Assembly (NCBI GenBank): GCA_963662285.2
Contig: CAXXMV010000006.1
Coordinates: 320,001-384,000, forward strand
From: a bacterium
GTDB taxonomy: Bacteria > Hinthialibacterota > Hinthialibacteria > Hinthialibacterales > Hinthialibacteraceae
DNA length: 64,000 nucleotides
Direction of reading: 5' to 3'
Shown in pieces: positions 10,315 to 29,200 of this stretch. How positions within the stretch are numbered: the first letter of the stretch is position 1; every line of letters begins with the position of its first letter. Made by a program: the position numbers and the translations under genes. Under the pieces are notes generated by a model. It saw only the letters and a program-made list of their open reading frames with translations, was not told the origin of the DNA and did not search any database.

Positions 10315-13300
10315 TTATTTCTTTCTCTCAATAGGCAAACATACTGTGAACGTCGTCCCTTTACCTATATCACTATCAACCGAAATCGTTCCCCCGTGTT
10401 GTTCGATGATTCCATACGAGAGCGATAATCCCAATCCCGTACCGGAACCAACCGGTTTCGTCGTAAAGAATGGGTCGAAGACTTTTGAGAGATTCTCCGA
10501 TGGGATGCCCTTGCCGTCGTCACGGATGTTTACGATAACGTTGTTGGCTTCCTGTGATGTGGTGATCCATACGTTGCCTTCGCTTTCTTCGTTCGCTTCG
10601 ATGGCGTTGCCCAACAGGTTAACAAATACTTGGTTAATCTTCCCCGGCGAACAGGTCACAGAGGGTAAACCAGCGTAGTCTTTGTGAATCGTAATCTGAT
10701 CTTTGTATCGACTGTGAAGAAGAGTTAATGATGAATCAATAGCTTCGTGGATATCGAATGCCGAATAGTAGTCTTCATCACAGCGTGAATAAAGTCTTAA
10801 ATCCGCGACGATCCGGGCGATGCGGTCGGACCCGTCTTCGAACGATTGTATGAGTTTATCGCTGTCCTCATTCGCGTATTCCAAGTCTTCTTCCTCGTAA
10901 ACTGAATCAAATTCGTTCCGCACTTTTTCGGGTAAACTCTCTTTTTGAGCCACAACAGTGTCAACTGCTTTTTTATACCCAAACAGGTAATCCTTGAGAG
11001 GTTGGATATTGCTCTTAATGAAATTGACTGGATTATTGATCTCATGGGCGACACCGGCAACGAGTTGACCGAGCGAAGCCATTTTTTCGGATTGGATTAG
11101 TTTGTTTTGAGTTTGTTTGAGTTGTTCATGGCTGATCCTGAGATCCGAGTAACTCGTCTGTAAGCGAAAGTGACGATTAAGTGTTGATCCGGCGAAGAAG
11201 AATATGAGTAAACTACAGACAATGATGATAACAAAGAAAGTAGGCTCCTTATACCAGGGCGATAACACAGTGAAATCCCACATCGCGGGAGTTTCGTCGA
11301 TGTTCCAATTTCTATCCATTGCCCTAACCTCGAAACGGTGAGAGCCTGGAGAAAGCCCCGGAATCGATACCATGATATCCGAAGTAAATGGTGACCATTG
11401 TTCATCATCAACACGATGCGAATAATAAAGGCGGGTAGATTCCGTGTATTTCCACTTGTCCCTTGCTTCATAAACAAATTGAGTTTGTCCATTGGATGTG
11501 AATTCATTTATGTTATGTTCGTTACGAATTTTTGTTTCAGGAGGATCAGGATCGCTCTCAGGATGATATATACTGATATTTGCTGTTGTTGCAACATATA
11601 TATTTCCAAGTTTGTTCTTATGTACATTCCATACTTTGGAGACTGGAAGCCCATCTTTTTTATTAATTGATGACCACGAGCCTTTGTCGTACCGATGTAG
11701 GCCATTGCCTGAGGCAACCCATATTATTCCTTCGTGATCTCTCATCATAAAACGAACCGTATCCAATCCAGAATGAAATAATTTCCATTTCGCACCAGAA
11801 AACTCGTAGATGCCTCCCCTTGCTCCACACCATATACGACCGTCTCCAAGATCGAGAATTGAAAATGCTCCCAGGCCTGTATAACCGGATTCCGGGCCAA
11901 AAATAGTGCATTTGCCTTCACGATATAATATGGGGCCATATTTATCACTGTGGCCTATCCATACATCACCGTTATCTGTTTGAACGACATCTCTAATCCA
12001 AGGCCAATTTGAAAGTAAATTGTGATTAAAAACAGAATGAAAATTGATCCCGTCAAAAATTTCTAAAGCATTAAGACCACTTTTCTTATCGGTCGTGATA
12101 ATGAACATTGATTTTTCATTGCGAGGGAATATTGCACCTAATTTTTTGGTTGGATGTGTAATAGTGTCAGTAATTTTATTCAGGGGATCGAAACAATACA
12201 AATTTTCTCGCATTGTCCCAATATATATTTTATCAAACATAACTATAAGATTTTTGGGGACAAAAGAATCTGTTGGTGTGACCTCTTCTGAAAAAGGAAA
12301 AATATCTATAGAGGAATCTTTATTTAATTTTATTAGATTTTCAGTATTAGCACAATATGTATTTCCTTTAGAGTCACTGTCAATCATAGTGTATCTAGAT
12401 TTGGCTTGGGGTATTTCTATAGGTGATCTCCATGTAGAAGGCGCATAGCGTGCAAGACCTCCTCCTTTTAATGCGAACCATACAGAATCGTTAGTGGATG
12501 TCTCAAAATCTGGAATCCACCCAGAAATTAATTGCTCGCTCTCTTTGACCTCTTTCCTGAAACCATCTTGAATAATGTTAATTACTTTATTATCAGTGAT
12601 AAACCAAAGACGATCATCGCTATCTAACCATCCGTCAGTTGTATTGTTTGGAACATCGAAATCGAGAATTTCCCATTCATTATCTTGCAATCTCAAAAGG
12701 ACGGAATTTTCAGTCCCCTGAAATACGAATATACCAATTATATTACTATTTAATTCATTAAAGGTTAATTTAGAATTCATGTACTTTAGGTCATGTACAT
12801 AGTCTGGAAAAGGATATTCAGTCCATGACCATTTTGGGTCTGTTTTTTCTTTTAATCTTTCAAGTTTCATTACACCATTTTGTGAACAAATCCATAAACT
12901 CTTATCAAGAAAATTAAATTTACAATAATTAAATCCTTTGAGAACAGTATCTGTCGGTCCAACAACCACATTTTCAGATTTGCTTGTTGCATCAAACTCC
13001 ATTACGAAATTATTGTTTAGATAAATCACTTTGTCGTAGTCAAAAGGGAAATAATTCCAACTATAACCAGACCTAGTTGGTGCCCAATCGGTGACAGGGA
13101 AATGAATCCAATTTTTTAACGAATGATCATAACGTACTAATTCTACTTTTTCTTGATTAACTGAAATAGACCAAATTTGACCAAATTCGTTCTGGAAAAT
13201 TTTTGCATGAGGATAGGGATTTGGAATATTTAAGACTGAATATCCATCCAAGATATTCATGTCGGGAACATCACCGTGATTTACAAACACTTTTCCATCA

Positions 13301-13449
13301 GGTGTTACGGTAACTTTTGCACAATTGGTCTCATCAAAACCATCATCAATTCCCCAATATCTCCAAACACCTGGAGTCTGAGGCCAAACATCCCAAACAA
13401 GAGAGAAACAAGCTATAATAAAGAATAAAGAATATCTTAATTTCATCAT
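10315..13449 (-). CDS. Sensor histidine kinase: periplasmic beta-propellers, Y_Y_Y domain, TM, NtrB-like HisKA/HATPase
   Basis: Signal peptide; IW-type propeller repeats; HRFEVRAMDRNWN; EKMASLGQLVAGVAHEINNP; FFTTKPVGSGTGLGL. Confidence 0.92.
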   Translation of the reverse strand: MMKLRYSLFFIIACFSLVWDVWPQTPGVWRYWGIDDGFDETNCAKVTVTPDGKVFVNHGDVPDMNILDGYSVLNIPNPYPHAKIFQNEFGQIWSISVNQEKVELVRYDHSLKNWIHFPVTDWAPTRSGYSWNYFPFDYDKVIYLNNNFVMEFDATSKSENVVVGPTDTVLKGFNYCKFNFLDKSLWICSQNGVMKLERLKEKTDPKWSWTEYPFPDYVHDLKYMNSKLTFNELNSNIIGIFVFQGTENSVLLRLQDNEWEILDFDVPNNTTDGWLDSDDRLWFITDNKVINIIQDGFRKEVKESEQLISGWIPDFETSTNDSVWFALKGGGLARYAPSTWRSPIEIPQAKSRYTMIDSDSKGNTYCANTENLIKLNKDSSIDIFPFSEEVTPTDSFVPKNLIVMFDKIYIGTMRENLYCFDPLNKITDTITHPTKKLGAIFPRNEKSMFIITTDKKSGLNALEIFDGINFHSVFNHNLLSNWPWIRDVVQTDNGDVWIGHSDKYGPILYREGKCTIFGPESGYTGLGAFSILDLGDGRIWCGARGGIYEFSGAKWKLFHSGLDTVRFMMRDHEGIIWVASGNGLHRYDKGSWSSINKKDGLPVSKVWNVHKNKLGNIYVATTANISIYHPESDPDPPETKIRNEHNINEFTSNGQTQFVYEARDKWKYTESTRLYYSHRVDDEQWSPFTSDIMVSIPGLSPGSHRFEVRAMDRNWNIDETPAMWDFTVLSPWYKEPTFFVIIIVCSLLIFFFAGSTLNRHFRLQTSYSDLRISHEQLKQTQNKLIQSEKMASLGQLVAGVAHEINNPVNFIKSNIQPLKDYLFGYKKAVDTVVAQKESLPEKVRNEFDSVYEEEDLEYANEDSDKLIQSFEDGSDRIARIVADLRLYSRCDEDYYSAFDIHEAIDSSLTLLHSRYKDQITIHKDYAGLPSVTCSPGKINQVFVNLLGNAIEANEESEGNVWITTSQEANNVIVNIRDDGKGIPSENLSKVFDPFFTTKPVGSGTGLGLSLSYGIIEQHGGTISVDSDIGKGTTFTVCLPIERKK

Positions 13450-13680: not shown

Positions 13681-14004
13681 TTAATCTGAAGCCACACGAT
13701 CTTTCATGCTTTTTCCCGCCTTGAATTGCACAATATTTCTCGCTGGAATTGCGGCTTTTTCGCCTGTTAGCGGATTACGGCCTACTCTGGCAGGAGTTTT
13801 CTTGACATTGAATATCCCAAAATTTCGAACCTCGATCCTTCCTTCTTTTGCCAATAAATCAATGAAAACATTGAATGTGCAGTCGACAATTAACATCAGA
13901 TGTTTCCTTTGAGTTTTATGTCTGTACTTTGATAGACGCTCAGAGAGAATATCGATGATGTCTTGTTTTGTCATTTTCTTATTCCATTTACGTGTTGCTT
14001 CCAT
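13681..14004 (-). CDS. IHF/HU-family DNA-binding protein
   Basis: MTKQDII, IEVRNFGIF, RVGRNPLTGE, FKAGKSMK. Start may be 13974. Confidence 0.92.
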   Translation of the reverse strand: MEATRKWNKKMTKQDIIDILSERLSKYRHKTQRKHLMLIVDCTFNVFIDLLAKEGRIEVRNFGIFNVKKTPARVGRNPLTGEKAAIPARNIVQFKAGKSMKDRVASD

Positions 14005-14006
14005 AT

Positions 14007-14372
14007 TCAGTTTGCCCCTAACATCTCTTCCAAGGCTTGGAATATATCTGTTGGAGAATATGGTTTCAGGATAATCAGGTTCGCACCGTTTTTCATCGCT
14101 TCTTCCCTCGTATTTGGTTGAGAGGAAGCCGTGACCAAACCAATAGGGACATGGGGAAATTTTTCTCTTATACGTGGCATCAATTCAATACCGTTAAGGC
14201 CGGGCAATTGATAATCCAACAAGAATATGTCTGAATGTACTGTATCAATCTGTTCGAGCATTACTTCACCATTCGGGTATGAGATAACTTCATATCCTTT
14301 AAACTCAAGCAAATCCTGAAGATTCTCTCGTAATTCTATTTCGTCATCTACGATTATAATAGTCGTCATCAT
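14007..14372 (-). CDS. Single-domain response regulator (receiver only)
   Basis: IIIVDDE, LLDYQLPG, VTAS, LKPY. The ATG overlaps the upstream kinase stop (TAATG). Confidence 0.92.
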   Translation of the reverse strand: MMTTIIIVDDEIELRENLQDLLEFKGYEVISYPNGEVMLEQIDTVHSDIFLLDYQLPGLNGIELMPRIREKFPHVPIGLVTASSQPNTREEAMKNGANLIILKPYSPTDIFQALEEMLGAN

Positions 14373-17300
14373 TATTCCTCCTTGATTGGTAAACACAATG
14401 TAAATGTTGTTCCACGGCCTTGTTCGCTCTTCACCGTCAGCGCTCCACCATGCAACTCAACCAGTTCCTTGGCAATCGACAATCCCAGCCCTGAACCTTT
14501 GGCGAATTTCTGCGAAGCCGAAGTCCGGTAGAAGCGCTCCCAGATTTTGGTGCATTCTTCTGGAGTCATACCAATGCCGGAATCCTTCACTGATAGTGAT
14601 ACAGAATTACCTTCACATGATAAACATACATCGACGGTTCCATTATCGGGAGTATATTTGATAGCATTAGATATCAGTTCACCTACTACCCGCTCGATCT
14701 TGCTGCCGTCAATATGCAGGTTTATCTCTTCCCCAAGATTGGCGTTGAGCGTGATTTGTTTTTGTTCTGCGGCGGGGTGATTTTCGTTGATTATGTTCTC
14801 CACCAAAGCCTTGAAGGGGATATCGCTTTTTTCTAGAACAATTCGACCAGTTTCGATGCGGTTAAGATCAAGTACATCGTTAATAAGGTTTGTAAGCCGG
14901 TCTACGGATGTTGTGGCGCGGGTCATTACTTTCTGCTGCTTTTCGTTTAGAGCGCCTGCGATACCCATCAGCAGGTTATCGAGGCTGCCTTTGATGGCGG
15001 TTAACGGCGTGCGTAGATCATGGGAGGCTTGGGAGACGAATTGGGTTTTCATATGATCGAGTTGGATCAGTTGCGCATTGGCTTCCTGAAGTTCTACGTT
15101 GGAATGGTTCAGTGCTTTATTGGCATGGCGTAAATGAAAATGGCGATTGATAGCAAAAAGAGCAAAACAAAGCGTAATAAAGGTGCTTATGGATATGAGT
15201 AAGATAAAGATCGGCTCTTTGTACCAGGGCAGCAGCACATTGAACGGCCATGACACCGGGGCTGATATGTTCCAATTCAAGTCCATGGCCCGTACATGGA
15301 AGATATGCGCACCATGAGTAATATCGGGGAAAGACGCAACAGTTTTTCTATCGAAAACCGACCACGGTTCATCATCAACGCGATAGGAATATTGCAGGTG
15401 TTCCTGCTTGGTGTATTTCCATTTATCGATAGCCGAAAAGATAAACCGCACATCAATATGGGGAGCAAATTCTTTAATATTATCCGCTTCGGAAACAAAC
15501 ACTTTTGGTTTATCCTGATCTGCTTTGGGATTATAAGCATACAGACCATCGGATGTGGAAATATAGATATTATTCTTTGCATCTTCGATTACATTGAAAA
15601 ATACATTTCCTCTGGGCAATCCATATTCATAATTGGCAAAAACCCATGAATTATCTTTGTAATGAAAAACACCACGGCTTCCAACGACCCAAACACTGCC
15701 ATCTTCAGCCTGGTGCATACTACGTATGGGACATGACTCTAGTAATTTTTTAACAATTCGCCATTTTTCGCCATCATATTCAGCGATATATTTCCTTCCG
15801 CCCGCCCAAATTTTGCCGTTATTCAGTTCTAATAGAGAAAATACTCCATTATCTTCATAGCCATCCTTCACGCCAAAAGTATAAGTTACACCATCGCGAT
15901 ATAAGACTGGCCCGGTCGGTTTAGCATCACCAATCCACAAATCTCCATCTTTAGTGTATATAGCATCCCGGATACCAATGGCGGTTGGGAGGTCTTTCTG
16001 ATTGATAAGGTGAATAAGTTTTTGACCATCAAATAATTCAAAAGAGCTATTACCTGATGCATTATCCCTGGATACAACAATGTTATTTGGAGGATGTTGA
16101 TTCCAAAAAGTTGATAATCCTTTTGATGGATGTTGAAACTCCTCAAATTCTTCAATCGCTTTATTGAAAAGGATTAATTTCCCCTTCGCACTACCGATAA
16201 GTATTCGTTTATCTTTAATCTCAACTAAATCTCTGGATACAGCAATACCGGCTGGTAAAGAATATGATTTCAATTGATTATCATTCCAACAATACAAATG
16301 CTCTGATGTTGTATCGGTAAACCAAAGATTGCCATCTGAATCAATACCCACATTCATGGACGTACCGGGGAATATTTTATCATCAAATTCCGGCTTATCC
16401 CAAAGTGGAGGAGAATAATGAGCCAATCCATGCGTTGTGGTTAAAAAGAATGAATCATCTTCAAGTATTTCTATATCGTGGCAACGTGCACCAAGGATAT
16501 CGTTCCCTTCAATTTTGATTGACTGATTGTTTGTTAAAATTGATATTCCACCTGCTCTATCAATACTCCAAAATCGTTTTCGGCGATCCTCAAAACCATA
16601 TTGAATGCTACTATTCGCTTCATGACCAGAAGGTTCGTCAAAAACCTTAAAGGAATTATCTTTGAATGAAATAAAATAAGACCTATTCTCGGACAGAGAA
16701 TGCGTCCATCCGTATACTTCATTCCCATGGAGTTCGAAAATACGAAAAAAACCAACGTATTTAATTGAATCAGGAAAGAGATTTTCTTGATATTTCCATT
16801 GATCATTTTCTTTTTTAATTTTCAAGAGTCCTTTATCGGCTGTCACCCAAATTCCGCCATCAGAGGATTTACAATAGTTGGGGTAAAACATATTGAATGA
16901 GGTTTTATCAACAGAAACTATGTTTGTTTTCGTATCTGTATCTGCGTCGTACTCGAAGAGTTGTTCATAATTGGCAAGAACAAATCTGTTACGTCCTATA
17001 AATGCAAAATTGTAATATGAACCTTGAAAAGTAATAGAATCCATTTCTGGAATTGGCTTTTTTTCCCATTCCCCGGTCTCTGGGATATATTTCATAAACC
17101 CCCGTTTGGGTGATGCATCGCTTTCGTAATAGTAAGCCCAATATTGTCCATAAGCATCTTGTTGAACAATGTTCATTATTGGCGGCAAAATCATGGAATT
17201 AACACTGTAACCATCAATAATGCTAACAGCTCTTGCATCTGCATGGTTGACGATAATATTACCATTCGGGCTTAACTTCACCCGCCTGCCATAAGATTCT

Positions 17301-17416
17301 TCAAAACCATCTATGGTCGACCAATAGCGCCATACGGGCGGACTTTGCGCCCAAGATAAAGAATGAAATGTAACTAGAATGAGAATACTCACAATGAATC
17401 TTCGAGCAATTTTCAT
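14372..17416 (-). CDS. Sensor histidine kinase (beta-propeller/Y_Y_Y sensor), array member D
   Basis: Signal peptide, propeller repeats, RAMDLNWN, TM, ASHDLRTPL H-box, KGSGLGL. Confidence 0.93.
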   Translation of the reverse strand: MKIARRFIVSILILVTFHSLSWAQSPPVWRYWSTIDGFEESYGRRVKLSPNGNIIVNHADARAVSIIDGYSVNSMILPPIMNIVQQDAYGQYWAYYYESDASPKRGFMKYIPETGEWEKKPIPEMDSITFQGSYYNFAFIGRNRFVLANYEQLFEYDADTDTKTNIVSVDKTSFNMFYPNYCKSSDGGIWVTADKGLLKIKKENDQWKYQENLFPDSIKYVGFFRIFELHGNEVYGWTHSLSENRSYFISFKDNSFKVFDEPSGHEANSSIQYGFEDRRKRFWSIDRAGGISILTNNQSIKIEGNDILGARCHDIEILEDDSFFLTTTHGLAHYSPPLWDKPEFDDKIFPGTSMNVGIDSDGNLWFTDTTSEHLYCWNDNQLKSYSLPAGIAVSRDLVEIKDKRILIGSAKGKLILFNKAIEEFEEFQHPSKGLSTFWNQHPPNNIVVSRDNASGNSSFELFDGQKLIHLINQKDLPTAIGIRDAIYTKDGDLWIGDAKPTGPVLYRDGVTYTFGVKDGYEDNGVFSLLELNNGKIWAGGRKYIAEYDGEKWRIVKKLLESCPIRSMHQAEDGSVWVVGSRGVFHYKDNSWVFANYEYGLPRGNVFFNVIEDAKNNIYISTSDGLYAYNPKADQDKPKVFVSEADNIKEFAPHIDVRFIFSAIDKWKYTKQEHLQYSYRVDDEPWSVFDRKTVASFPDITHGAHIFHVRAMDLNWNISAPVSWPFNVLLPWYKEPIFILLISISTFITLCFALFAINRHFHLRHANKALNHSNVELQEANAQLIQLDHMKTQFVSQASHDLRTPLTAIKGSLDNLLMGIAGALNEKQQKVMTRATTSVDRLTNLINDVLDLNRIETGRIVLEKSDIPFKALVENIINENHPAAEQKQITLNANLGEEINLHIDGSKIERVVGELISNAIKYTPDNGTVDVCLSCEGNSVSLSVKDSGIGMTPEECTKIWERFYRTSASQKFAKGSGLGLSIAKELVELHGGALTVKSEQGRGTTFTLCLPIKEE

Positions 17417-20400
17417 CTGTTTTGCCTCCCCATAGATAATTTCATTTGAAATTTTGTTCCTTCGTCTTGTTTGCTGGCAACCTCAAGAGTTCCTTCATGC
17501 AATTCAACAAGTTCCTTGGCAATCGAAAGCCCCAGCCCAGAACCTTTGGCAAATTTCTGTGAAGCCGAAGTCCGGTAGAACCGCTCCCAAATTTTAGCGC
17601 ATTCTTCCTTCGTCATACCAATACCGGAGTCCTGCACTGATAGAGATACCATATCACCTTCACATGACAAACCAACTTCAACCATCCCATTATCCGGCGT
17701 GTATTTAATGGCGTTGCTGATCAGTTCCCCCACCACCCGCTCAATCTTGCCGCCATCAATATAAAGGTTTATCTCTTCGCCAAGTTTTGCGTTAAGCGTG
17801 ATCTGCTTCAACTCAGCGGCGGGTTGGTTTTCATTAATAATATTCTCCACTAATGTCTTAAAAGGAATATCGCTTTTCTCCAAAACAATCCGACCAGTTT
17901 CGATACGGTTGAGGTCTAGCACGTCGTTGATCAAATTGGTCAGGCGGTCAACAGAAGTTGTAGCGCGGGTCATGATCTTGGCCTGTTTCTCTGATAGCGC
18001 GCCTGCGATGCCCATCAGTAGGTTATCTAGGCTGCCTTTGATGGCGGTTAGGGGAGTACGTAAATCATGGGAAGCCTGGGAGACGAATTGGGTTTTCATC
18101 TTGTCCAGTTCACGAAGTTGTTCGTTGGCTTCGTGCAGGCTGGTGTTGGCGTCATTGAGGTATTCGTTAGTGGCTTGTAGTTCGTCATTGGTTTCAATAA
18201 GCTGTTCGTCTTTGCGTTGAATATCTTTCAAACTTTGAGCCAGCCGGAAGTGCCGGTTAGCCGCATAGCTGGCAAAGAACAGGATCAACATCGTTCCAAA
18301 CAACACCTGTTGGATAAATCTCGGCTCTTTATACCAAGGCAGAAGAACGGAAAACTCCCACTGCTGCGGCTCCGATTCGTTCCAGTTCATGTCCATCGCT
18401 TTGATTTCAAAGCGGTGATTCCCGGCGGGCAATCCGCTCCGGGATGCGATCGTACCAGTAGTGAAAGGAGACCATTCTTCTTCATCAAGCCGTTGTGAAA
18501 AAAGTAAGCGTTCACTGCGCGTATATTTCCACTTATCCATCCCGCCAAACACAAATTGCGCGTTGCCTCCTGGAGCAACGACTTGACTGTTGAGTTCTGG
18601 GTTGATTTGAGCGATAGGCGGATCCTGGTCCGTATCCGGATTATAGACGCTGATTCCCATGCTGGTTCCCGTCCAGATCCGCCCCTGGCTGTCTTCAAAC
18701 ACCTTCAATATACTTGATGAAGGAAGTCCATCCTCTCCCGTATAATGCACCCAGGAATTCTTTACCGGATCGAAGCAATGCACACCGCTCCCTGTCGCCG
18801 CCCAAATGCGGCCTTTTTTATCAATAATCATTGTACGGACAGCATCAACACCAGTACGAACACTACGCCACGCTATCCCATCGAATTCGCATATCTCATC
18901 CCGTCCCCCGCACCATATTCGTCCATCGCCCAAATCTAAAATAGAAAACGAACCGGTTCCCGGAAAACCGTCCTCTTCCCGGAACAACCGTAATTTTCCA
19001 TTCCGGTATAAAACAGGACCATGTATGTTTTGATGGGCAATCCAGATGTCCCCGTTTTTCGTTTGAAAGATCATTCGGGGATTGCCCCAACCCAATTTAC
19101 TGTACTCTTGGATAATATGGTGAGGAATAATGATTTGATACCGTTGCCCATCGTATTCTTGCAGTGAAAAAGTCCCGGTTTGATTATCAACAAAAGTGAT
19201 CACTGCTTTTCCTCCACTCCATGGATATACAATAAAAGGTTTTAGATGAGAGGGAGATTCGGCTTGCTTAAATTCACCGGTTTCCGGATTAAAAGCCATT
19301 ACACCAATGGGATTCAATCGTATCAATATATTCTCTTCATCAAGACAAGCAAGAAAATCTGTATTATAAATTTCAAAAGAACTATTTTCAGGAAATATGT
19401 GATTGGACCAATTTCCATTTTTAAATGAATAAATTGACTGATTCGTACAAAAGAGAAGTGATCCTGCGGGCGTTTCAGCAATACGGGAAATAGGTTCATT
19501 GATTTCTGGCATCCCTACAGGCGCTATCCATGCAGGGGATGAATAGCGAAGAAGACCTTGCCCAGACGAAATAAAAAAAATCCCGTTGCTTTCATATGCC
19601 ATATTCTTGGCATCATACATTTTAATTCCATGCTGTTCCGGATTGGACGCATCAATTCTATGGAGATAGAGTTTGTCTTTGAGTGCCCATATACAGTTGT
19701 TAAAATCACGAAAACCAGCAATAACAGGTAATTGTTTGTCAGAATGGATGACTGTCCACGATTTCCCGTCAAATTGAACGAGCACATCTTTCTCGTGAAT
19801 TGCAGAATAACTGCTCCCGAAAAGAACGCCATCTTCACGCTCAATTAGATTCTGTATACCTTGCAAATGAGAGTCTTCTGGAAATACATATTCTTTGTGT
19901 TCCCATATAAGTTCCCCATTATTGTCCTGATAGGACAACTTGAGAACACCTCGTTCACCGCAAACCCAGGCTCCTCCGTCTCTTGCCGTTATGATTTCTC
20001 CCAACGTACATTGTGGTGTATCACGGAATATGAGACTATGAAACGTTGAAAGTTTCGTATCCGTTGCGCTAAGGATTTCCGAGATAACGCCGTTTTTCCA
20101 GTTGAACATCTTAATGCAGTCATGAACTGAAAATAATACAGCATTCTCAACAATGGGAGCGATCGGGCAATTCAGGATATCCCAGCTTTGAACTACCGTA
20201 CGAAAATCGGGAATATTATAATGAATCCATTTTTGTGACGTTTCATCAAACCGTCGAAAACCGGTTAATCCATCGCCACAAAAATTTTTGGTTTCATCAT
20301 GGCCAAAACCAAATGTCCACAATTCTCTTGTTGGCCCCTCAAAAACGGCATTGTAAGGTCCTGGAAAGGGAATCTCTTCATAATGATATCCATATCCATC

Positions 20401-20598
20401 CAAAATACTTAAATGTCGTACGTCGCCATGATTGACAAAAAGCCGTCCGCTGGGGCCAATGGTTACATTGTTACTATTGGATTCATCAAATCCATCCCGG
20501 CTGTTCCATAACCGCCACCCCGGTATATCCGATCCGAAGGCCGCTGTTGCCCAAACGCACAAACAAACAGTAATCCTCATCAATACGAAACGTCGCAT
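17413..20598 (-). CDS. Sensor histidine kinase (beta-propeller/Y_Y_Y sensor), array member C
   Basis: Same architecture; FEDSQGRIWTGT propeller repeat; ASHDLRTPL. Confidence 0.93.
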   Translation of the reverse strand: MRRFVLMRITVCLCVWATAAFGSDIPGWRLWNSRDGFDESNSNNVTIGPSGRLFVNHGDVRHLSILDGYGYHYEEIPFPGPYNAVFEGPTRELWTFGFGHDETKNFCGDGLTGFRRFDETSQKWIHYNIPDFRTVVQSWDILNCPIAPIVENAVLFSVHDCIKMFNWKNGVISEILSATDTKLSTFHSLIFRDTPQCTLGEIITARDGGAWVCGERGVLKLSYQDNNGELIWEHKEYVFPEDSHLQGIQNLIEREDGVLFGSSYSAIHEKDVLVQFDGKSWTVIHSDKQLPVIAGFRDFNNCIWALKDKLYLHRIDASNPEQHGIKMYDAKNMAYESNGIFFISSGQGLLRYSSPAWIAPVGMPEINEPISRIAETPAGSLLFCTNQSIYSFKNGNWSNHIFPENSSFEIYNTDFLACLDEENILIRLNPIGVMAFNPETGEFKQAESPSHLKPFIVYPWSGGKAVITFVDNQTGTFSLQEYDGQRYQIIIPHHIIQEYSKLGWGNPRMIFQTKNGDIWIAHQNIHGPVLYRNGKLRLFREEDGFPGTGSFSILDLGDGRIWCGGRDEICEFDGIAWRSVRTGVDAVRTMIIDKKGRIWAATGSGVHCFDPVKNSWVHYTGEDGLPSSSILKVFEDSQGRIWTGTSMGISVYNPDTDQDPPIAQINPELNSQVVAPGGNAQFVFGGMDKWKYTRSERLLFSQRLDEEEWSPFTTGTIASRSGLPAGNHRFEIKAMDMNWNESEPQQWEFSVLLPWYKEPRFIQQVLFGTMLILFFASYAANRHFRLAQSLKDIQRKDEQLIETNDELQATNEYLNDANTSLHEANEQLRELDKMKTQFVSQASHDLRTPLTAIKGSLDNLLMGIAGALSEKQAKIMTRATTSVDRLTNLINDVLDLNRIETGRIVLEKSDIPFKTLVENIINENQPAAELKQITLNAKLGEEINLYIDGGKIERVVGELISNAIKYTPDNGMVEVGLSCEGDMVSLSVQDSGIGMTKEECAKIWERFYRTSASQKFAKGSGLGLSIAKELVELHEGTLEVASKQDEGTKFQMKLSMGRQNR

Positions 20599-23157
20599 TT
20601 ATTCTTCCTTCCAGTGAGGTAGTAGAAGCGAAAAAGTCGTACCTTCCCCTTGTTCACTTTCTACTGCTAGGGATCCTCCATGTAATTCCACTAACTCCTT
20701 AGCAATTGAAAGCCCCAGCCCCGAACCTTTAGCGAATTTTTGTGATGCCGATGTTCGGTAGAAGCGCTCCCAGATTTTGGTGCATTCCTCTGGAGTCATT
20801 CCAATGCCGGAGTCCTTCACCGATAGTGAAACCATATCACCATCACAAGCCAAACCAACATCAACCTTCCCATTATCAGGTGTGTACTTGATAGCATTAC
20901 TAATGAGTTCCCCCACCACCCTCTCAATCTTCCCGCCATCGATATGCAGGTTGATCTCTTCGCCAAGTTTTGCGTTAAGCGTAATCTTCTTCAGTTCGGC
21001 GGCGGGGTGGTTTTCGTTCATTATGTTTTCTACCAATGTTTTGAAGGGGATATTGCTTTTCTCTAGAACAACCCGTCCAGTCTCAATCCGGTTCAGGTCT
21101 AGAACATCATTGATAAGGTTAGTAAGTCGGTCTACTGATGTAGTAGCGCGGGTCATTACCTTTTGCTGCTTTTCGTTGAGAGCGCCTGCGATGCCCATAA
21201 GGAGGTTATCCAGGCTGCCTTTAATGGCCGTTAATGGCGTACGTAGATCATGCGAAGCCTGGGAGACGAATTGGGTTTTCATCTGGTCGAGCTGGATTAG
21301 CTGGGCGTTGGCTTCCTGGAGTTCGACGTTCATGCTGTTGAGTTCTTGGGTTCTACGTTCGACGCGGTCCTCTAGTTCAATGTTTAGCTTTTCCAAATCC
21401 TTATGGGATCGGGCCGAACGATAGGAAATGTAAATTGACATGGAAATGATAAATGCGATAAAGGCAATGGTGACGTTGCGATCCGAAACAATATGGTAAT
21501 AAATGATGGGTGGCCATCGGGTTGTTGGTCCATAAATTACGATTAATGAATAGAGCAACGATCCCATAAGTATTAGAGCGCCGAGAACGAACGTCGTTCC
21601 CTCGCATTTCTTCATCAACGCAACGATTAATACGCGAATCGATTCGATGCAAAACAGAATGGATGCAATCAAAAAGGCGTGGAAGAATAGAGTGGGCAGA
21701 TAAATCATCTCGTCGACCGTCGGTAGAGAGATGAAAACAATCCATCCTACAAGCAACAACCATACGACGATAAACCCCCAATACTGGCGCGGCAGCCTGT
21801 CGTAGACCGCCGAATAGAAAAACGGAAGCAACGAAGCCTGAGCGGCCATCAACAGCGAGAAAAAAAGCCATCGAACGGAATCTAAGACAGCCACTTGCGT
21901 AGTAATGGACAGAATAACGCTCATTCCCCCTAAATAGTCCAAAGCGGCCGCGCACCCCAGAAAAATGGAATAGTACAAATGTTGACGTTGTTTGGGATAA
22001 AAAACAAAAAAGCCGAGGTGAAGGAGCATCATGGCAAGTGAGATCGCGCCCACAAAGGTGTAATTGAATGTTGCGTTGCGAACGCCGAGGATATCCATAT
22101 TACTGGGAACGAGGCGAGCGAATCCCATGATGCTCCGGCTGCCAATTTTGCCGAAAAATTCGGTTACACTCTCATAGCCGTCCGGCGCTCGCATTGTATA
22201 AGAGAGAACGGTCGTTCCCGGTTGCAGGTCGAGCGACCAATGAATCGCATTTCCCCGTACGTCGCCGTCGTGACTGATATGATCGACCGTCCATTGATCT
22301 GGAATATTTTCAACAACGGAAACCGGCGCAGTACTCTCTTGCGGATTCGTCACGCATAGGGTGACGTGAATTCTATCACACATCCGGTAGCGGTCTTTCG
22401 ATACGGTGCGAACGGCATAGGGCATGGCGGGAACGAGTTGTAGATTTGATATTCGAACGCGAGCGGGTTCTATATTATTGTGCGAGTTATATATTTCCAC
22501 TCCATAGTATAGGGATTCTCCCAACGGAAAATCGATCGACCGGCCAACCATCCACTCGATTCCGTCGAATGAGTATTCCGAAAAAATGAATCTCCTTTTC
22601 GCATCAGCCGTCACTCGAGCCAAAATCCAGGGCTGGTAGATATTCGGGAACCCATCGTTAAAAAATTCCTTTCCATTCGCCGTTTTCCAATTCGTATCGA
22701 TCTCCCATTGACCGATACCGTAAACATCAACGAGATAGAAATCGAAATTGGATTTGTTATTGTACAAATCCAATGCATCCGATATGCAGCCTTTGGGATT
22801 CATTGGATTTTGAACGCAAATAGCGGATACGTATAAATCCGACCCTGGATTGTCATTCAAAAGTTCCAATTTGCCCGATATCGTCCAGGAGCCTTTACGG
22901 GTCGTATGGAGATATGCATACCATGCGGTCGCTTCATAGATGGCTTCCGAACCTGCACCTTGAACGCTGAGTTCCAACGGAGAATGTTCGACGCCGTATT
23001 GACGGTCCATATAGGGAGTCCAATCCAAAACTCGTTCAAGCATTCCGTTTCCTGGTAAAGGCGCCGATTCGACTAGAATGGCTTCCTTCTTATCCACTTG
23101 GGGAAAAACGAGAATGGGAATCCATACGAGAGAGAGAATCATCAATATTTTTTTCAT
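20599..23157 (-). CDS. Sensor histidine kinase (beta-sandwich ectodomains plus 7TM-DISM-like membrane domain), array member B
   Basis: Signal peptide, about 7 TM segments starting MMLLHLGFFVFYPK...LYYSIF, ELEDRVERRT coiled coil, ASHDLRTPL. Confidence 0.9.
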   Translation of the reverse strand: MKKILMILSLVWIPILVFPQVDKKEAILVESAPLPGNGMLERVLDWTPYMDRQYGVEHSPLELSVQGAGSEAIYEATAWYAYLHTTRKGSWTISGKLELLNDNPGSDLYVSAICVQNPMNPKGCISDALDLYNNKSNFDFYLVDVYGIGQWEIDTNWKTANGKEFFNDGFPNIYQPWILARVTADAKRRFIFSEYSFDGIEWMVGRSIDFPLGESLYYGVEIYNSHNNIEPARVRISNLQLVPAMPYAVRTVSKDRYRMCDRIHVTLCVTNPQESTAPVSVVENIPDQWTVDHISHDGDVRGNAIHWSLDLQPGTTVLSYTMRAPDGYESVTEFFGKIGSRSIMGFARLVPSNMDILGVRNATFNYTFVGAISLAMMLLHLGFFVFYPKQRQHLYYSIFLGCAAALDYLGGMSVILSITTQVAVLDSVRWLFFSLLMAAQASLLPFFYSAVYDRLPRQYWGFIVVWLLLVGWIVFISLPTVDEMIYLPTLFFHAFLIASILFCIESIRVLIVALMKKCEGTTFVLGALILMGSLLYSLIVIYGPTTRWPPIIYYHIVSDRNVTIAFIAFIISMSIYISYRSARSHKDLEKLNIELEDRVERRTQELNSMNVELQEANAQLIQLDQMKTQFVSQASHDLRTPLTAIKGSLDNLLMGIAGALNEKQQKVMTRATTSVDRLTNLINDVLDLNRIETGRVVLEKSNIPFKTLVENIMNENHPAAELKKITLNAKLGEEINLHIDGGKIERVVGELISNAIKYTPDNGKVDVGLACDGDMVSLSVKDSGIGMTPEECTKIWERFYRTSASQKFAKGSGLGLSIAKELVELHGGSLAVESEQGEGTTFSLLLPHWKEE

Positions 23158-25697
23158 TTCTCACCTACCGGTAATTGCAATATAAATACAGTTCTCTCAC
23201 CCTGTTTGCTTTGTACTGAGAGCGAGCCGTTGTGCAATTCCACTAACTCTTTGGCTATTGAAAGCCCTAGCCCTGAACCCTTCGCAAATTTCTTCGAAGC
23301 ATTCGTTCGATAGAAGCGATCCCAGATTTTGGCGCATTCTTCCTGAGACATCCCAATGCCCGAATCTTTCACGGAAAGAGAAACCGAATTTTCTTCTTGA
23401 ACCAGACTCACACTAACAGTTCCACTTTCTGGTGTGTATTTGATGGCGTTAGATATCAGTTCACCCACCACCCGTTCTATTTTGCTGCCATCGATGTTTA
23501 GAGTATAGTCTCCATCACTGGCATTGAATGTAAGTTGTATGTTTTTCTGCTCAGCCGCAGGGTGGTTTTCGTTGAATATATTTTCAACCAGTGCTTTGAA
23601 TGGTATATCACTTTTTTCTAAAACAATACGACCTGTTTCTATGCGGTTGAGATCAAGCACGTCGTTTATCAGGTTGGTTAGTCGATCAACGGATGTGGTA
23701 GCGCGTAGCATGACCTTTTGTTGTTTCTCTGTTAATGCTCCAGCGATACCCATTAGCAGGTTATCCAGGCTGCCTTTGATTGCAGTCAGCGGAGTGCGTA
23801 GATCATGCGAGGCCTGGGAGACGAATTGGGTTTTCATTTGGTCCAGCTGGATTAGTTGCGCGTTGGCTTCTTGTAGTTCTACGTTGGTATTATTGAGATA
23901 TTGATTGGTGGTATCTAATTCGTCATTGGCTTGTTCAAGTTCGCGTGTGCGTTGTTCGACGCGGTCTTCTAACTCAATATTGAGTTTATGGAGTTCTTTA
24001 TTCGATCTTCCAGACCGTTGCGTAAGATAAATGGAGACTGATAGCAGATAAAAAACAAGACCGCATTTCATAACTATCGCAGCAAATATAGATTGGAAAT
24101 TAAACAAATACGCCGATACTGTATAATAAATTACCGTTCCAATTAATACTACTAATCCAAATGTAATAATCCATATTCCATCAACGCGATTGCGGATTGC
24201 TTGAAGCAATGCCATGAAGAACAAAGAATAAACAATCCCATGAAAAAGCATGGTTGACAATTCAAACGTCATAGGAGCCACTAAGTAACAAACCGCCAAA
24301 ATCAAAGCAGTAATAATTATAATCCAGAAATATTTTGAAAGTTTCCGGTATGAGAGAGTGAAAATGAATAAGGCATTAGTAACAGTCGCAATGATCCCTA
24401 CTAATTGCGATGTAGTTACAAATGAGAAATTTCGATAGTTATTAATTTGACTGATTGAGTAGAATAAACATGAAACGCTCACTAAAAATAAAGTGAAATA
24501 GAGATTTTCTTTTAAGACCGGGTAATATATAAATAAAAATAGATGGACAAAGGCCATCATTAAAAATAATGTAATCAGAAGAGTGTCATAAAAAAGCGTC
24601 TCTATCTTTTTAGGAATATCAATTGTGCTATATGCAATAGTATTGGTTCCACCAATAGTCGCGTCATTGGTTGTTCCATGAAAAGTAGCAGATTTGTTTG
24701 GGTTTTGAGACGATTTAACATAATACCTCAAATATGTTGAACCAGGCCCGGCATCGAGCGACCAATGTATATGATTATTCTCAACAGTTCCTTGTTCAGT
24801 TACAGATGAAATACTCCAATCATCGGGCGTGTATTCATCTATAACCACCGACTCGAAGCCGCCACTGGAATTATAGAGTTCCAAAGTGACTTCCAGCATT
24901 GAATTTTCCGCAAAATGCTCAGCAGAAAATGTTCGACGAACTACAGTTTTGGCTGGTTCGAGAATAACATTCGTCACCCTTATGTGGGAGAGTTCATTTA
25001 CCTCAGCATAATGATTGTTCAGCATTATGCCATAGGCTATTTCTTCACTAATATACAGATAAGAACTGTTTAAAATATTCCACTGTATTCCATCAATCGA
25101 CCATTCGGTAATGAACAAATTCCGGGGAAAGATTCTTGTTATACGAAGGTGCAAGAAATTTTGATCAGAAAAATACTCAAATTTACTACTTTCCATCTTT
25201 TCTAATTCATTCACAACATAAAAACTACGTAAAGAATGTCCGAATGGATACTCATCTAAATTTAAGTTTAAATGACGAGATACGGGATTTTTTCCGTTTT
25301 CACGGACCATCAGACCAGCTTTTGTCGGAATAGAACTTTCACTACAATTTGTAAGTATTTCAATCCTTGCCGATAACCTCCACGAGCCGCTTCTGGTCGC
25401 ATAAAGGAAAAAGCCTTCATCACTTTGATCGCCCAGTTCAAAAGAACCGTTGCCATAAATATCATAGACAAATTCTCCATTGACTTTGGATACTTCGCAT
25501 CGACCGGGAACTTTGAATTTACGCAATTTCGGACCAAACTCTGGTTCAAGTCCCCAATCAGCGGTGGCGCTAAAGATGCCGAGATTAGCCGATTCCTGCG
25601 CCATGCAAGGATTAGCCAGTTCGAATGAACATGCAAAGAAGAGACAAAAAAGAAATAATAAGTTTATAGAGCCACGCCTAACCATGATTTCACCCAC
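23154..25697 (-). CDS. Sensor histidine kinase (ConA-like and Ig-like ectodomains plus 7TM-DISM-like domain), array member A
   Basis: KAGLMVRE beta-sandwich motif, about 7 TM segments, ASHDLRTPL. Exact start uncertain (25685 possible). Confidence 0.9.
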   Translation of the reverse strand: MGEIMVRRGSINLLFLFCLFFACSFELANPCMAQESANLGIFSATADWGLEPEFGPKLRKFKVPGRCEVSKVNGEFVYDIYGNGSFELGDQSDEGFFLYATRSGSWRLSARIEILTNCSESSIPTKAGLMVRENGKNPVSRHLNLNLDEYPFGHSLRSFYVVNELEKMESSKFEYFSDQNFLHLRITRIFPRNLFITEWSIDGIQWNILNSSYLYISEEIAYGIMLNNHYAEVNELSHIRVTNVILEPAKTVVRRTFSAEHFAENSMLEVTLELYNSSGGFESVVIDEYTPDDWSISSVTEQGTVENNHIHWSLDAGPGSTYLRYYVKSSQNPNKSATFHGTTNDATIGGTNTIAYSTIDIPKKIETLFYDTLLITLFLMMAFVHLFLFIYYPVLKENLYFTLFLVSVSCLFYSISQINNYRNFSFVTTSQLVGIIATVTNALFIFTLSYRKLSKYFWIIIITALILAVCYLVAPMTFELSTMLFHGIVYSLFFMALLQAIRNRVDGIWIITFGLVVLIGTVIYYTVSAYLFNFQSIFAAIVMKCGLVFYLLSVSIYLTQRSGRSNKELHKLNIELEDRVEQRTRELEQANDELDTTNQYLNNTNVELQEANAQLIQLDQMKTQFVSQASHDLRTPLTAIKGSLDNLLMGIAGALTEKQQKVMLRATTSVDRLTNLINDVLDLNRIETGRIVLEKSDIPFKALVENIFNENHPAAEQKNIQLTFNASDGDYTLNIDGSKIERVVGELISNAIKYTPESGTVSVSLVQEENSVSLSVKDSGIGMSQEECAKIWDRFYRTNASKKFAKGSGLGLSIAKELVELHNGSLSVQSKQGERTVFILQLPVGEK

Positions 25698-26037
25698 ATT
25701 ATGGAATAGCCAAAATAAATCGAATGATACGATTATCTCAAAAAACAGAAGAAGAGTCTACTTGAGAGGGAGAATCCAACATAAACAGCGGATAATATTT
25801 GATTTGCAAACTGTAATATTTGATATGGCCTGCGGAGAGCGAAATAGGTTAGAATCTGACTTGATCCATTACTCAAATTACGACGCGAACAGCGCTTCTA
25901 TTATGCAATCGTGCAACGACCGTGCAATCCAGGGGTGGTTTGAGGGGGGTCTGAGGGTGGTGTCAACGTGGGGGCAAGATGAGTAAGTGTTTCTAAATGC
26001 TTGCTTTACTGATGTTTACGTGAATTGATGAATGTGA

Positions 26038-26194: not shown

Positions 26195-26230
26195 AAAAGC
26201 GGCTGCATCGCATTGAAGATGCAGCCGCTT
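26195..26230 (-). terminator. Intrinsic terminator of the minus-strand CotH gene
   Basis: AAGCGGCTGCATC...GATGCAGCCGCTT 13-bp stem, followed by a T run on the minus strand. Confidence 0.75.
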
Positions 26231-26252: not shown

Positions 26253-29200
26253 TTAATACAATGCCCAATCAGATACAGCGGTTATGTCCGGGCCGTTGAG
26301 GAATTGGTCTGGAGTTAATGCTCCGGCTGACAGGCGAACTTCGTCGATGCGGCCGGGGAGGACGTCGGTGGTTCCGGCTGCGGTGCGGCGCGCTCCAACC
26401 ATAATCGGCAGGTCGCTGTCAGTGCGTAATTTATCATAGGCCAAACCATCTTCATAATGAGTGATCTGCGCCTCGACTTTGTTGCCATCAACATATAGTA
26501 AAACTGGCTGCATGGTATTCTTCAGGTTTACGACTGCTGCGTAATGGTGGAATAATCCATCATATATAACCGCTCCACCGCTGGTCGCGGTATGCAGTCT
26601 TTCGTTGAATCCTGAGTTGGCTGATGCGTCGTTGAGCAAGAAATCGAGCGATCCGGTTTCTGATAGTCCTGCGGCGAAGCGCCATACGCCGTCAACTGAT
26701 GCGTTGGCTTCGTCATAACGGTCGACTAGTATCGCTTCTCCGAAAGAGTTGAGAGAGAACATGGCGTAGCATTCAATGGTCATGCTCTGTTCGACGTCCA
26801 GATATGATTCGGTCGAACCGAACTGGAAGCCATTGCCATCCACCCCGTCAAGCACCAGGGCTGTTGTGTTGGGCTGCTCGGTCAATGGAACCTCGCTATT
26901 AGCGCCCGGCGCTGCGATGGAGGTTGATCCCAGCAGCTGTCCGTCAGGGAACAGGCCAATCGATTCCTTGGCGTCGCCTTCAAAGCGGTAATAGGCGATG
27001 ACATTGCCTTCGGCGATGTCGCCGACCGGGCTGCCTTGAACCACGACGCCTTTGGATGACAGGCGATTTTCGGAAATGGTTCTGATGACGAAGGTATATA
27101 ACTGCCCGTTTTTAAGATCGCGGATGCGGATGCGATTATCGGTGATTGGAGTGGATTCGATGATTTCGTTGTCTTCGAAGATATCCACGCGAATCAGGTC
27201 GGCGGCGGTTGGCTGGCTCCATTGGATGCGCAGAGACTCGTTCATCGGCGTGACAATAACGTTTTCAACGTCAGGCGGCGCCAAGCCGGGATTAAGGCTG
27301 AATGAGGTCGGCTGAGACCAGTCGCTCCATAAGCCATCATTACGCTGATATCTGGCGCGCCAGAAGTAAGTTGTTCCTGCGCCGATAATATAAGCGGGAA
27401 CCTTAATAGATGGCGCATCTACCTTGTTTTGGGAGGACCAGATTGGTTTATAGAAATCGTCGTTGTTTTGATTGATCTCCCATTGCATAACTAATGGCGA
27501 CGAAAAAGCGGTCACTGCTTGCAGTTCAACGATTCGCGAAGTCAGAACCGCATGATTGGCGGGCAGTACGTTCTCCGGCGCGTTGGAAGTATCAGCAGCC
27601 CGGACATTTTTATCTTTCAAGATGAATTCACGGCGGGCGGTGATATACTTTTTCATTTCGGATATCATGTCGTCGATCTGGCCTGGAGAGTTCCAGCGCT
27701 CCATGTTTTCCCTGATAGCATCTTCGAGGTAACTCCAATATGAATCGAAGATAGGATCAAGATGTTCATGGGTGAAAATATGTTCGACAAAATAGCGTAG
27801 GCGCTGGTAGTAGCGGTCGCGGAACTCTGGAACGCCGAGAAAACGCTTGCGCAGTTCGTTGGTTCCGAATACGCCGCCGACAGCTCCGTCTAACAGACTG
27901 TAGTTTGAAATAAGCGGGAAACTGTCGCTGGTGTGGATTTCGCCCCAGGCGTGGCTCATATCCCAGGGAGAGATATACCAGAGCTGGTCAGCGCCTCTGG
28001 ATGGGAAATAGTTCTTTTCGGTGCTATCGACATGCGATAGCACGGCGACGCTGGCCAGGTAATTGAGGTATGTCTCAATATTTACATTGGATTCAAAGAA
28101 TGATTTGAGATCGCTGGAATCGTTTAATTCCTCAATGAAGTTAATCAGAACAGCGATATCGTCTGCACGGCCAATGGCGTTTTCGTATTTCTGGGCGTAG
28201 GCGTCGAAATTGGGTTCTTTGGTTAAGTAACTGCGCCGAGCTTTAATTCCGGCTTTATACAGCTGCGTCTCAGCTGGCATATCATGAGCGTCGAGAAAAT
28301 CTTCGTTATATTGCTCAAGCCCGATGAATAGCCCGTAGTAGGCGTTATTCAATACGACGCGGTAATGCTTGCTATCCGACGCCGGAACGCCCGCCTGCTG
28401 CATGAATTGATAGGCCAGATGTTCCTGGAAGCCGGATTCTCCGCGCAGCAATGGAGATGTCTGGTAGTTGGCGTTGAGGTTGTAGGTGCGTCGGTTGTTC
28501 CAGCGGTGATCTTTGGCGAATTGGATTTTCCAACTCTTCTTGGGTTTGTTGCGTAGAGTGTTTCCCCGGTAACGGATGCCGCCGCTGTTGGATAGATCGA
28601 ACACTTCGCCTTCGATTACCACGAATGATGGTTGTTCAACATCTGACTGAACATTGCGGTTGAGCCAGTTGAGCACTTCCTGTTCGGCGAATAAGTAGAT
28701 AGTGGGATATTTGGGTGGATCAAGGCGGTCTTCTACAAAGAAGGCCAGCGCTTGGGTTTTCTCTTCCTGGCGTGGGATAGTGGCGACTTGACCGGCTTTA
28801 TCAGTAGCGGTGATTTTATAGCGCCAGATTTCGTGGGGTCGGATGGTTTCGGCGTTGTTCAGTTTATAGGAATAGACTCCATCATCGGCGATATTATCGC
28901 CGCTGGTTCCATTATCGAACATGTTAACCGATTTCCACTCGCCCATAACCAGGCCGGTGCCATAGGGAGAGCTTAAGCGCTGGTAGTGCAGGGTGACTGT
29001 GTCGATGCCATCTTCGTCTACCGCTTTGGCGGTGATGGTTATGGCGTCAGCGTCGTCTTCTCCGGCATCCAATACGCGCATCATGGCTAAGGCTGGATGT
29101 AGCGAGAAATCTGAACTGGTCAGGCTGGTGTTATGTCCCTGGACGGCCAGGACGTTCTTGCCGGGACGCAGGTTCTTGATGAAACTGGTGACGTCAAACT

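Follow-up and report, generated by a model that had tools for sequence, protein, structure and literature searches.

Four tandem sensor kinases with divergent sensors and one near-identical transmitter in a Hinthialibacterota genome

Two-component histidine kinases that have arisen by duplication quickly change the specificity residues of their dimerisation and histidine phosphotransfer (DHp) domain, which insulates their pathways from one another, as in paralogues of the EnvZ/RstB type. HK853 and RR468 of Thermotoga maritima form a one-to-one pair in which the kinase has a small sensor, while LuxN, LuxQ and CqsS of Vibrio are several kinases integrated into one output by way of LuxU. Periplasmic sensors of the Reg_prop/Y_Y_Y kind bind glycans. 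The Kin kinases of Bacillus subtilis are encoded by dispersed genes and have transmitters that diverged as paralogues ordinarily do. These kinases, KinA to KinE, provide a many-kinase input via Spo0F to the phosphorelay of sporulation, as laid out in the available text of the source (PMC8749435). Lineage-specific expansions of kinases were described by Alm, Huang and Arkin (2006), who reported new combinations of upstream sensors and many 'orphans' without an adjacent regulator and inferred duplication followed by shuffling; the accessible portion of their paper contains no occurrence of the term 'gene conversion' (PMC1630713). The window analysed here is a stretch of 64,000 nucleotides (nt) from a bacterium of the Hinthialibacterota (contig CAXXMV010000006.1, positions 320,001 to 384,000), and it harbours four tandem sensor kinases, K1 to K4, of a family that does the reverse of the insulating paralogues: the partner-selecting hairpin is frozen over the long term while the sensors drift to about 30% identity.

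Six open reading frames (ORFs) lie head to tail on the minus strand between positions 25697 and 13681, encoding K1, K2, K3, K4, a stand-alone receiver and an IHF/HU-like DNA-binding protein. K1 (23154-25697; 847 aa from a GTG start, 843 aa in its database entry P0015) is a membrane sensor kinase composed of a signal/anchor helix, a beta-rich ectodomain, a multi-helix membrane domain (hydrophobic segments within residues 365-560), a coiled coil and the transmitter. K2 (20599-23157; 852 aa) is the second kinase of this beta-sandwich/seven-transmembrane (7TM) type. K3 (17413-20598; 1061 aa) and K4 (14372-17416; 1014 aa) carry beta-propeller sensors and a single membrane helix each, at residues 761-780 and 733-759, respectively. 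The receiver (14007-14372) is 121 aa long from its ATG and matches Response_reg with E 2e-26, and the IHF/HU-like protein (13681-14004; 107 aa), the product of the last gene, matches Bac_DNA_binding with E 2e-24. The original prediction, a reading of the bare sequence, had the four kinases tightly coupled through ATGA, TAA-ATG, ATGA and TAATG junctions, and all of these were found in the DNA: the K1/K2 and K3/K4 junctions are ATGA overlaps, the ATG of K3 directly follows the TAA of K2, and the stop of K4 overlaps the start of the receiver as TAATG. The ATG of the IHF/HU-like gene begins 2 nt past the TGA of the receiver. Upstream of K1 a consensus scan picks out a terminator-like hairpin after the neighbouring LTD/CotH gene (26197-26230, minus strand; 13-bp stem with 8 G-C pairs) and two sigma-70-like promoter matches that overlap each other shortly before the K1 start (25712-25760, minus strand; 9 of 12 hexamer matches each), which are weak matches since the region holds no more promoter-like sites than shuffled sequences do. 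Because of the coupled junctions, the hairpin and the promoter-like matches, the block from K1 to the IHF/HU-like gene looks like one tightly coupled operon of about 12 kb, of which the hairpin is the predicted upstream limit.

The transmitter modules, each comprising a DHp and a catalytic ATP-binding (CA) domain of together about 245 aa, are located at 23157-23894 (K1), 20602-21339 (K2), 17416-18156 (K3) and 14375-15109 (K4), all on the minus strand. All four kinases score complete HisKA (E 1e-17 to 1e-18) and HATPase_c (E 7e-31 to 5e-28) domains, with K1 at E 1e-17 and 5e-28. The modules of K1, K2 and K3 are 84%, 89% and 83% identical to that of K4, which was the query of the family searches, and across the six pairs identity is 77-90% at the amino-acid and 72-80% at the nucleotide level. 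The alignment has a mean column identity of 89%, and 66 of 70 DHp columns and 105 of 155 CA columns are invariant. A repeat finder independently recovered two 300-nt stretches in four copies each, 67-80% identical and spaced by 3047, 3183 and 2552-2555 nt. The description of the kinase modules as almost identical, including the whole DHp helix, is thus borne out, and so is the statement that their DNA differences are mostly synonymous: each pair of modules differs by 106-130 synonymous and 36-84 non-synonymous changes.

A recent duplication alone would leave synonymous divergence as low as non-synonymous divergence, and this comparison gave a proportion of differing synonymous sites (pS) of 0.62-0.76 against 0.065-0.148 for non-synonymous sites (pN). 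The ratio of the corresponding rates (dN/dS) is 0.036-0.096 in the five module pairs with a finite dS, the sixth pair being saturated. Between K2 and K4 the DHp domain has accumulated about 30 synonymous and no non-synonymous changes. DHp pS, at 0.58-0.78, is no lower than that of the CA domain. Where two modules agree in amino acid, they use the same codon in 41-55% of columns, against 35-38% expected from codon usage, and the longest exact nucleotide run among the modules is 23-32 nt per pair. Since synonymous sites are nearly saturated while dN/dS is only 0.04-0.10, the identity of the transmitters in the window is maintained by purifying selection and not by recent duplication or recent conversion. 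The original prediction had ascribed the identity to selection, which holds for the window but is not the whole story, as the concerted evolution across genomes described below makes plain. A programmed 'shufflon' that exchanges sensors via the repeated transmitters was also considered; it is unlikely because the repeats are only 67-80% identical and share exact runs of at most 32 nt.

The sensors behave differently. Those of the same type in the window are only 30-31% identical (30% for K1 against K2), and their dN/dS is not computable owing to saturation of the synonymous sites. Reg_prop matches were obtained for K3 and K4 (E 4e-12 and 6e-13), whereas 7TMR-DISM_7TM matches in K1 and K2 are weak (18.7 and 19.8 bits against a Pfam cut-off of 29), and the 7TM-type kinases of the window gave no Pfam match to the DISMED extracellular domain at E <= 0.01. 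An AlphaFold2 model of K2 built with 21 homologues has a mean predicted local distance difference test (pLDDT) of 74.6. It comprises an all-beta ectodomain (residues 42-351; pLDDT above 90 in the second half) and seven membrane-length helices (356-557), followed by a long helix (560-655) that passes along the coiled coil and continues as DHp helix 1, by DHp helix 2 and by an alpha/beta CA domain (701-847). The linkers of K1 and K2 differ in length by exactly 14 residues, which corresponds to two heptads and keeps the register. A fold search with the model against the PDB matched only kinase cores (HK853, DivL, GacS) and is uninformative for the ectodomain, and the atlas look-alikes of the ectodomain are ConA-like/lectin and DUF11 clusters with sub-threshold scores of at most 0.83 that serve as leads only. 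With regard to the sensor types first proposed, two propellers and two beta-sandwich/7TM sensors are supported by the Reg_prop matches and the K2 model, but the Y_Y_Y domain is not: a Pfam match to it is absent in K3 and K4 and falls below the cut-off in K5 (a fifth kinase described below) and in P0017, a family member elsewhere on the contig.

The kinases belong to a discrete family. In a full scan of 1.84 billion representative sequences with the K4 module, 53 of the best 150 representatives examined are at least 54% identical to the query and the other 97 at most 39%, with none in between. A word-based search gives the same family, and 75 of 120 listed proteins re-score at 240 bits or more; K1, K2 and K4 are among the homologues that it lists while K3 (1061 aa, with a module 83% identical to the query) is not. 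The exact 21-aa H-box motif is present in 44 of these 120 proteins and in 27 of the 54 kinases from the loci described next and the window. On the 1,897,099-bp contig of the window there are three further members, P0005 (697 aa, 7TM type), P0017 (1005 aa, a propeller with a weak Y_Y_Y match) and P0021 (651 aa, 7TMR-DISM at 35.4 bits against the cut-off of 29), which brings the count to at least seven family kinases with K1 to K4 and agrees with the expectation that the organism carries more copies. A scan of a genome collection yielded 56 loci, 40 of them in the family, from 16 genomes other than that of the window; three of these 16 carry the label Candidatus Omnitrophota, and the family is one of Omnitrophota-type genomes. 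Their loci encode 50 distinct family kinases (up to 10 per genome) and 15 stand-alone receivers. The search of genome and relatives for attached sensors that had been proposed at the outset divides the 50 kinases and the four of the window into 25 propeller, 13 7TM and 16 short proteins, these being rough BLAST classes in which the 7TM label of one 375-aa protein is probably wrong. One relative has an array of its own, with a kinase of 1061 aa, a receiver and then kinases of 871, 836 and 1032 aa on the contig of loci L001 and L004. In that array a gene for a FitA-like ribbon-helix-helix antitoxin separates the first kinase from the receiver (L001 83-370, equivalent to L004 ~6500-6800).

Comparison across these genomes indicates that sensors and transmitters have had different histories. 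In the tree of propeller sensors, K3 groups with L004_CAYPPG_1061 (support 95; 39% identity between the two sensors), K4 groups with P0013 and P0018 (support 98), and P0017 with L003_QZKN_1011 and L014_CAZTDD_1024 (support 100). The transmitter tree instead groups by genome or genus: K2, K3, K4 and P0005 fall together (support 96-99), 18 rows from the genus of the window form a clade (support 98), the CAYPPG, QZKN and CAZXSQ rows form another group (support 95/96) and the two L014 kinases pair with each other (support 100/99). Approximately unbiased (AU) tests reject the sensor groups with the module data (p 3e-97, 5e-9 and 5e-5) and the genome groups with the sensor data (p 2e-73, 5e-5 and 4e-5). 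The same pattern is visible in pairwise identities, with P0017 and L014_1024 sharing 54% in their sensors and 66% in their modules, P0017 and K4 31% and 81%, and the two L014 kinases 37% and 90%. Mapped onto a module tree of 73 rows, the propeller and 7TM types (52 rows) require 13 changes, which is near the 16.5 +/- 1.8 obtained with shuffled labels; the count of 13 is inflated by the poor resolution of this tree in places. Taken together, the trees and tests argue for concerted evolution of the transmitter across genomes, uncoupled from that of the sensors. The residues that distinguish genomes are more in keeping with common descent or wholesale replacement of the module than with adaptation confined to the receiver interface.

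A direct trace of conversion was found in the relative represented by L001. Its adjacent 836-aa (7TM) and 1032-aa (propeller) kinases share an exact tract of 167 nt (6144-6310 and 10103-10269) that begins midway along DHp helix 1 and extends through the whole of DHp helix 2; the repeat finder agrees, and a tract of this length was reached by none of 500 permutations in a Sawyer-type test. In the same genome tracts of about 61 nt in the H-box connect three other kinases. Among the 107 within-genome module pairs of all genomes, pS has a median of 0.74 and a minimum of 0.45. Since pS is high in such pairs and the signal in the window is marginal, conversion is episodic and the long-term work is done by selection. 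L001 also contains a 96-nt repeat of 89% identity, one copy of which (7254-7349) occupies the gap before the gene of the 1032-aa kinase and the other (10756-10851) lies just downstream of it.

The closest solved structure to the transmitter is HK853 (E 1e-36, 31-33% identity), and the SHDLRTP motif of the K4 module aligns with its phospho-histidine. Partner-contact positions were taken from the titles of PDB entries as those that had been rewired, namely A268, A271, T275, V294 and D297 of HK853 and positions 13, 14, 17 and 21 of RR468. In the HMMER alignments K4 has A, G, N, R and T at the former (position 294 being ambiguous), and the same residues are present in K1 to K4. The latter correspond to E13, L14, N17 and L21 of the stand-alone receiver; across 23 homologues E13 is nearly invariant and the other three are fully so. 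In the same set D53 and K103 of the receiver are invariant and D10 is nearly invariant. Its best natural solved matches are Spo0F (E 1e-15, the second-best solved match overall) and RR468 (E 2e-15). Only one stand-alone receiver of the family, that of the window, was found on the 1.9-Mb contig among 32 word-sharing candidates. As the DHp contact residues are identical and one family receiver faces at least seven kinases, the simplest and most likely reading is that K1 to K4 share one receiver or set of receivers. The original prediction of a many-to-one array is consistent with these gene counts.

The small receiver is probably not the sole acceptor of the family kinases, because in relatives the receiver precedes a receiver-PP2C protein and the genome of the window encodes such a protein as well. 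The order of kinase(s), receiver and receiver-PP2C phosphatase of the SpoIIE family is found in L007, L013, L015, L016, L020 and L029, and L034 has the receiver-PP2C immediately after the kinase. The receiver-PP2C of L016 is followed by a STAS-domain gene, and in L018 a receiver-kinase takes the place of the receiver-PP2C after kinase and receiver. The contig of the window encodes both a receiver-PP2C (P0209) and a receiver-kinase (P0220) at other sites. We read the succession of receiver-PP2C and STAS genes as characteristic of a partner-switching route that leads to a sigma factor. The IHF/HU-like protein falls short of the NCBIfam cut-offs for both IHF-beta and IHF-alpha. Its adjacency to the receiver was considered as a conserved feature and rejected for the relatives examined: a phmmer scan found no HU match beside the receiver in the other receiver-bearing loci examined, and the HU-like gene of L015 is 5 kb away behind a resolvase. 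A predicted complex of the receiver with two copies of the IHF/HU-like protein scored 0.00 against a mark of 0.32, which speaks neither for nor against binding.

On balance, we judge it rather likely that the operon is the core of a lineage-specific multikinase network built on a shared, concertedly evolving transmitter. It is proposed that the same HK853-like HisKA/HATPase transmitter is joined, through a coiled coil whose number of heptads varies, to extracytoplasmic sensors of two unrelated sorts: a seven-helix membrane domain bearing a beta-sandwich plus Ig-like ectodomain, and a propeller with one membrane helix. Presenting the same partner-selecting DHp surface, K1 to K4 would phosphorylate and dephosphorylate the same receiver or receivers and so merge several inputs into one phosphorylation level. 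The targets would include the stand-alone receiver, which is translationally coupled to K4, and probably the receiver-PP2C and receiver-kinase encoded elsewhere. The stand-alone receiver may serve as sink, relay or effector, and the best candidate for an output is the route from receiver-PP2C to STAS of the relatives. The transmitter would be kept uniform by strong purifying selection and, over longer times, also by conversion centred on the DHp domain or by replacement of the whole module. Unstimulated kinases would drain phosphate, and the output would then be a balance of inputs and not a pure OR. The motif H-D-x-x-T marks phosphatase-competent HisKA kinases, and it is retained in K1 to K4 as H-D-L-R-T beside the phospho-histidine; a pure OR gate is therefore doubtful and a summation of kinase and phosphatase activities at least as likely. 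Mixed dimers among K1 to K4 that compute combinations of signals may form, given that the DHp domains are identical and the genes co-translated. A more tentative extension of the proposal would make the transmitter a genome-wide 'standard plug', in which DHp-centred recombination and purifying selection keep the copies compatible with one set of receivers, old or new sensors can be wired in at once and mixed dimers may form.

The proposed network has to be weighed against other accounts of the same likeness. If it were history only, a residue of recent duplication or conversion that owes nothing to selection for a common function, conversion in the kinase family and the clustering of modules by genome would find a ready explanation; this is nevertheless highly improbable in view of the near-saturated pS in the window next to its low pN, the K2/K4 DHp domain with its synonymous changes only, the longest exact run of 32 nt and the high pS of within-genome pairs in all genomes. 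More can be said for a transmitter frozen mainly by kinase-kinase assembly, in heterodimers or mixed arrays, or by a common accessory protein, and not by the receiver. Conservation extends throughout the module, CA domain included, and into part of the coiled coil; it exceeds that of the receiver, the K1 and K2 linkers stay in heptad register, and an identical DHp domain poses no barrier to heterodimers. We still regard assembly as a rather unlikely main cause, as the alpha-1 helix of the receiver is itself nearly invariant, which fits a co-conserved kinase-receiver interface.

Two further accounts leave the transmitter as it is and change what it does. The kinases could be insulated despite their identical DHp domains and address different receivers, such as the stand-alone receiver, the receiver-PP2C and the receiver-kinase, with the choice depending on where each kinase is localised, on scaffolds or on its sensor and membrane regions. 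At least three family-linked receiver types exist in the genome or its relatives, with alpha-1 helices that are similar but not the same (ELRENLQDLLEFKGY versus DIRLNLCDFLELEGY). Such insulation is improbable when the DHp positions that govern partner choice in HK853 are identical in K1 to K4, the four genes appear to be co-transcribed and translationally coupled, and a single stand-alone family receiver was found for at least seven kinases. Alternatively, some members could be mainly phosphatases or modulators of the RetS kind instead of phosphodonors, so that the array sets thresholds and does not add inputs. The retention in all four of H-D-L-R-T, the HisKA phosphatase mark, would suit this role, and multikinase networks with such members are described in the literature as far as its available text goes, but the complete HisKA and HATPase_c domains, none of which looks degenerate, make it quite unlikely.

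Several observations count against the shared-partner network itself. The common partner is deduced from sequence comparison, and the receiver census behind it was word-based and restricted to proteins of 66-212 aa, such that divergent or fused receivers would escape it. The closest homologues of the receiver are 85-69% identical compared with 86-89% for the kinase module, whereas a simple model in which the receiver constrains the kinases predicts otherwise. Residues that distinguish genomes occur along the DHp alpha-2 helix and in the CA domain and are not confined to the receiver interface, so that either something other than partner choice contributes as well or simply the common descent of the module does. 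The groups for the AU tests were picked from the sensor tree after the first module tree was already known. The L001 tract sits in a metagenome assembly and is possibly an assembly artefact, and the only conversion signal of the window, 27 nt between K2 and K3, is marginal (global p ~0.01).

A fifth kinase, K5, is encoded 231 nt downstream of the operon (10315-13449, minus strand) and combines a propeller sensor of the K3/K4 family with a different transmitter. It is 30% identical to K3 and K4 over its full length and only 24-27% identical to the transmitters of K1 and K2. Its propeller sensor is as near to those of K3 and K4 as these two are to each other, and its transmitter is 58% identical over 268 aa to that of the receiver-kinase P0220 on the same contig. 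Because K5 carries a K3/K4-type sensor on a P0220-like transmitter, this genome pairs one sensor family with two distinct transmitters, a hint of a second tier of signalling.

The remainder of the window contains further signalling and surface genes. Two divergently oriented giant surface-type proteins with Lamin-tail, CotH, LamG, PA14 and Fn3 domains are encoded upstream of the operon (26253-31601, minus strand, 1782 aa; 32453-38356, plus strand, 1967 aa). A link of the kinases to such LTD/CotH proteins was considered and rejected, as a gene of this kind occurs within 10 kb in only 2 of the 40 family loci. A second signalling cluster (44180-54481, plus strand) follows FapA and TPR genes; it begins and ends with receiver-PAS-HisKA genes and also encodes a Reg_prop hybrid kinase of 1186 aa and a PAS kinase with two receivers and Hpt of 1295 aa. 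Its last ORF (53177-54481) lacks an ATPase domain, a 75-aa ORF at 55777-56004 is a C-terminal HATPase fragment, and between the two lies a DDE transposase of the ISAZ013 family (54495-55718, minus strand); an insertion sequence thus seems to have interrupted a kinase gene in the region 53177-56004. There are also two type IV pilin-like (N_methyl) genes at 1855-3206 (minus strand), genes for a PD-(D/E)XK nuclease and a UvrD-type helicase together with a DUF932 gene at 5683-9704 (plus strand), and two very large ORFs that gave no Pfam match, of 1543 aa and more than 818 aa (the latter running off the window), at 56944-64000 (plus strand).

If the receiver is indeed shared, the operon would represent a natural system for merging many surface signals at one phosphorylation node, and gene conversion would be able to police signalling specificity. 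It would also supply a ready set of compatible sensor-transmitter junctions, stepped in whole heptads of coiled coil, for the engineering of sensors. The family furthermore gives a first hint of how the poorly known Omnitrophota sense their surroundings; the open-access literature yielded no account of this kinase family in that phylum and none of concerted evolution or gene conversion in kinase transmitters.

Among the systems outlined at the beginning, KinA to KinE with Spo0F are similar in that several kinases with different sensors serve one stand-alone receiver, here a presumed one, and Spo0F is the second-best solved match to the receiver of the window. Unlike the Kin kinases, the four of the window are encoded in what looks like one translationally coupled operon and have transmitters that are 77-90% identical; no Spo0B-like phosphotransferase came to light, though no search aimed at one was made. 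GacS, RetS and LadS of Pseudomonas likewise lead several sensor kinases to one output and, according to the portion of the literature available, use kinase/phosphatase balance and kinase-kinase contacts to do so. The Gac and Lux networks consist mostly of hybrid kinases with diverged transmitters and operate through Hpt proteins or direct kinase-kinase inhibition, whereas the kinases of the window are non-hybrid, have one transmitter sequence and are arranged in tandem. HK853-RR468 resembles the locus as the closest solved transmitter, which provided the template for the contact residues, and RR468 too is a stand-alone receiver. The Reg_prop propellers of K3, K4 and K5 recall the Reg_prop/Y_Y_Y sensors of the Bacteroides hybrid two-component systems; unlike in these hybrids, Pfam detects neither a fused receiver nor an AraC-type DNA-binding output domain in K3, K4 or K5.

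The nearest parallel at the level of the family is offered by lineage-specific expansions, in which, to the extent of the accessible text, kinase domains are likewise closest to paralogues of the same lineage and varied sensors sit on the same kinase domain (PMC1630713). Set against that portion of the paper, the present family differs in that its sensors have orthologues across genomes while its transmitters group by genome, which points to homogenisation or replacement of the transmitter, and in that its copies keep their specificity residues identical over saturating synonymous divergence. Many-to-one networks are thus already known, as are lineage-specific expansions with shuffling and orphans, as far as the available text of these sources goes. 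What differs here is the tandem coupled array, a transmitter that stays near-identical over saturating synonymous divergence, and transmitters that follow the genome in the company of a DHp conversion tract.

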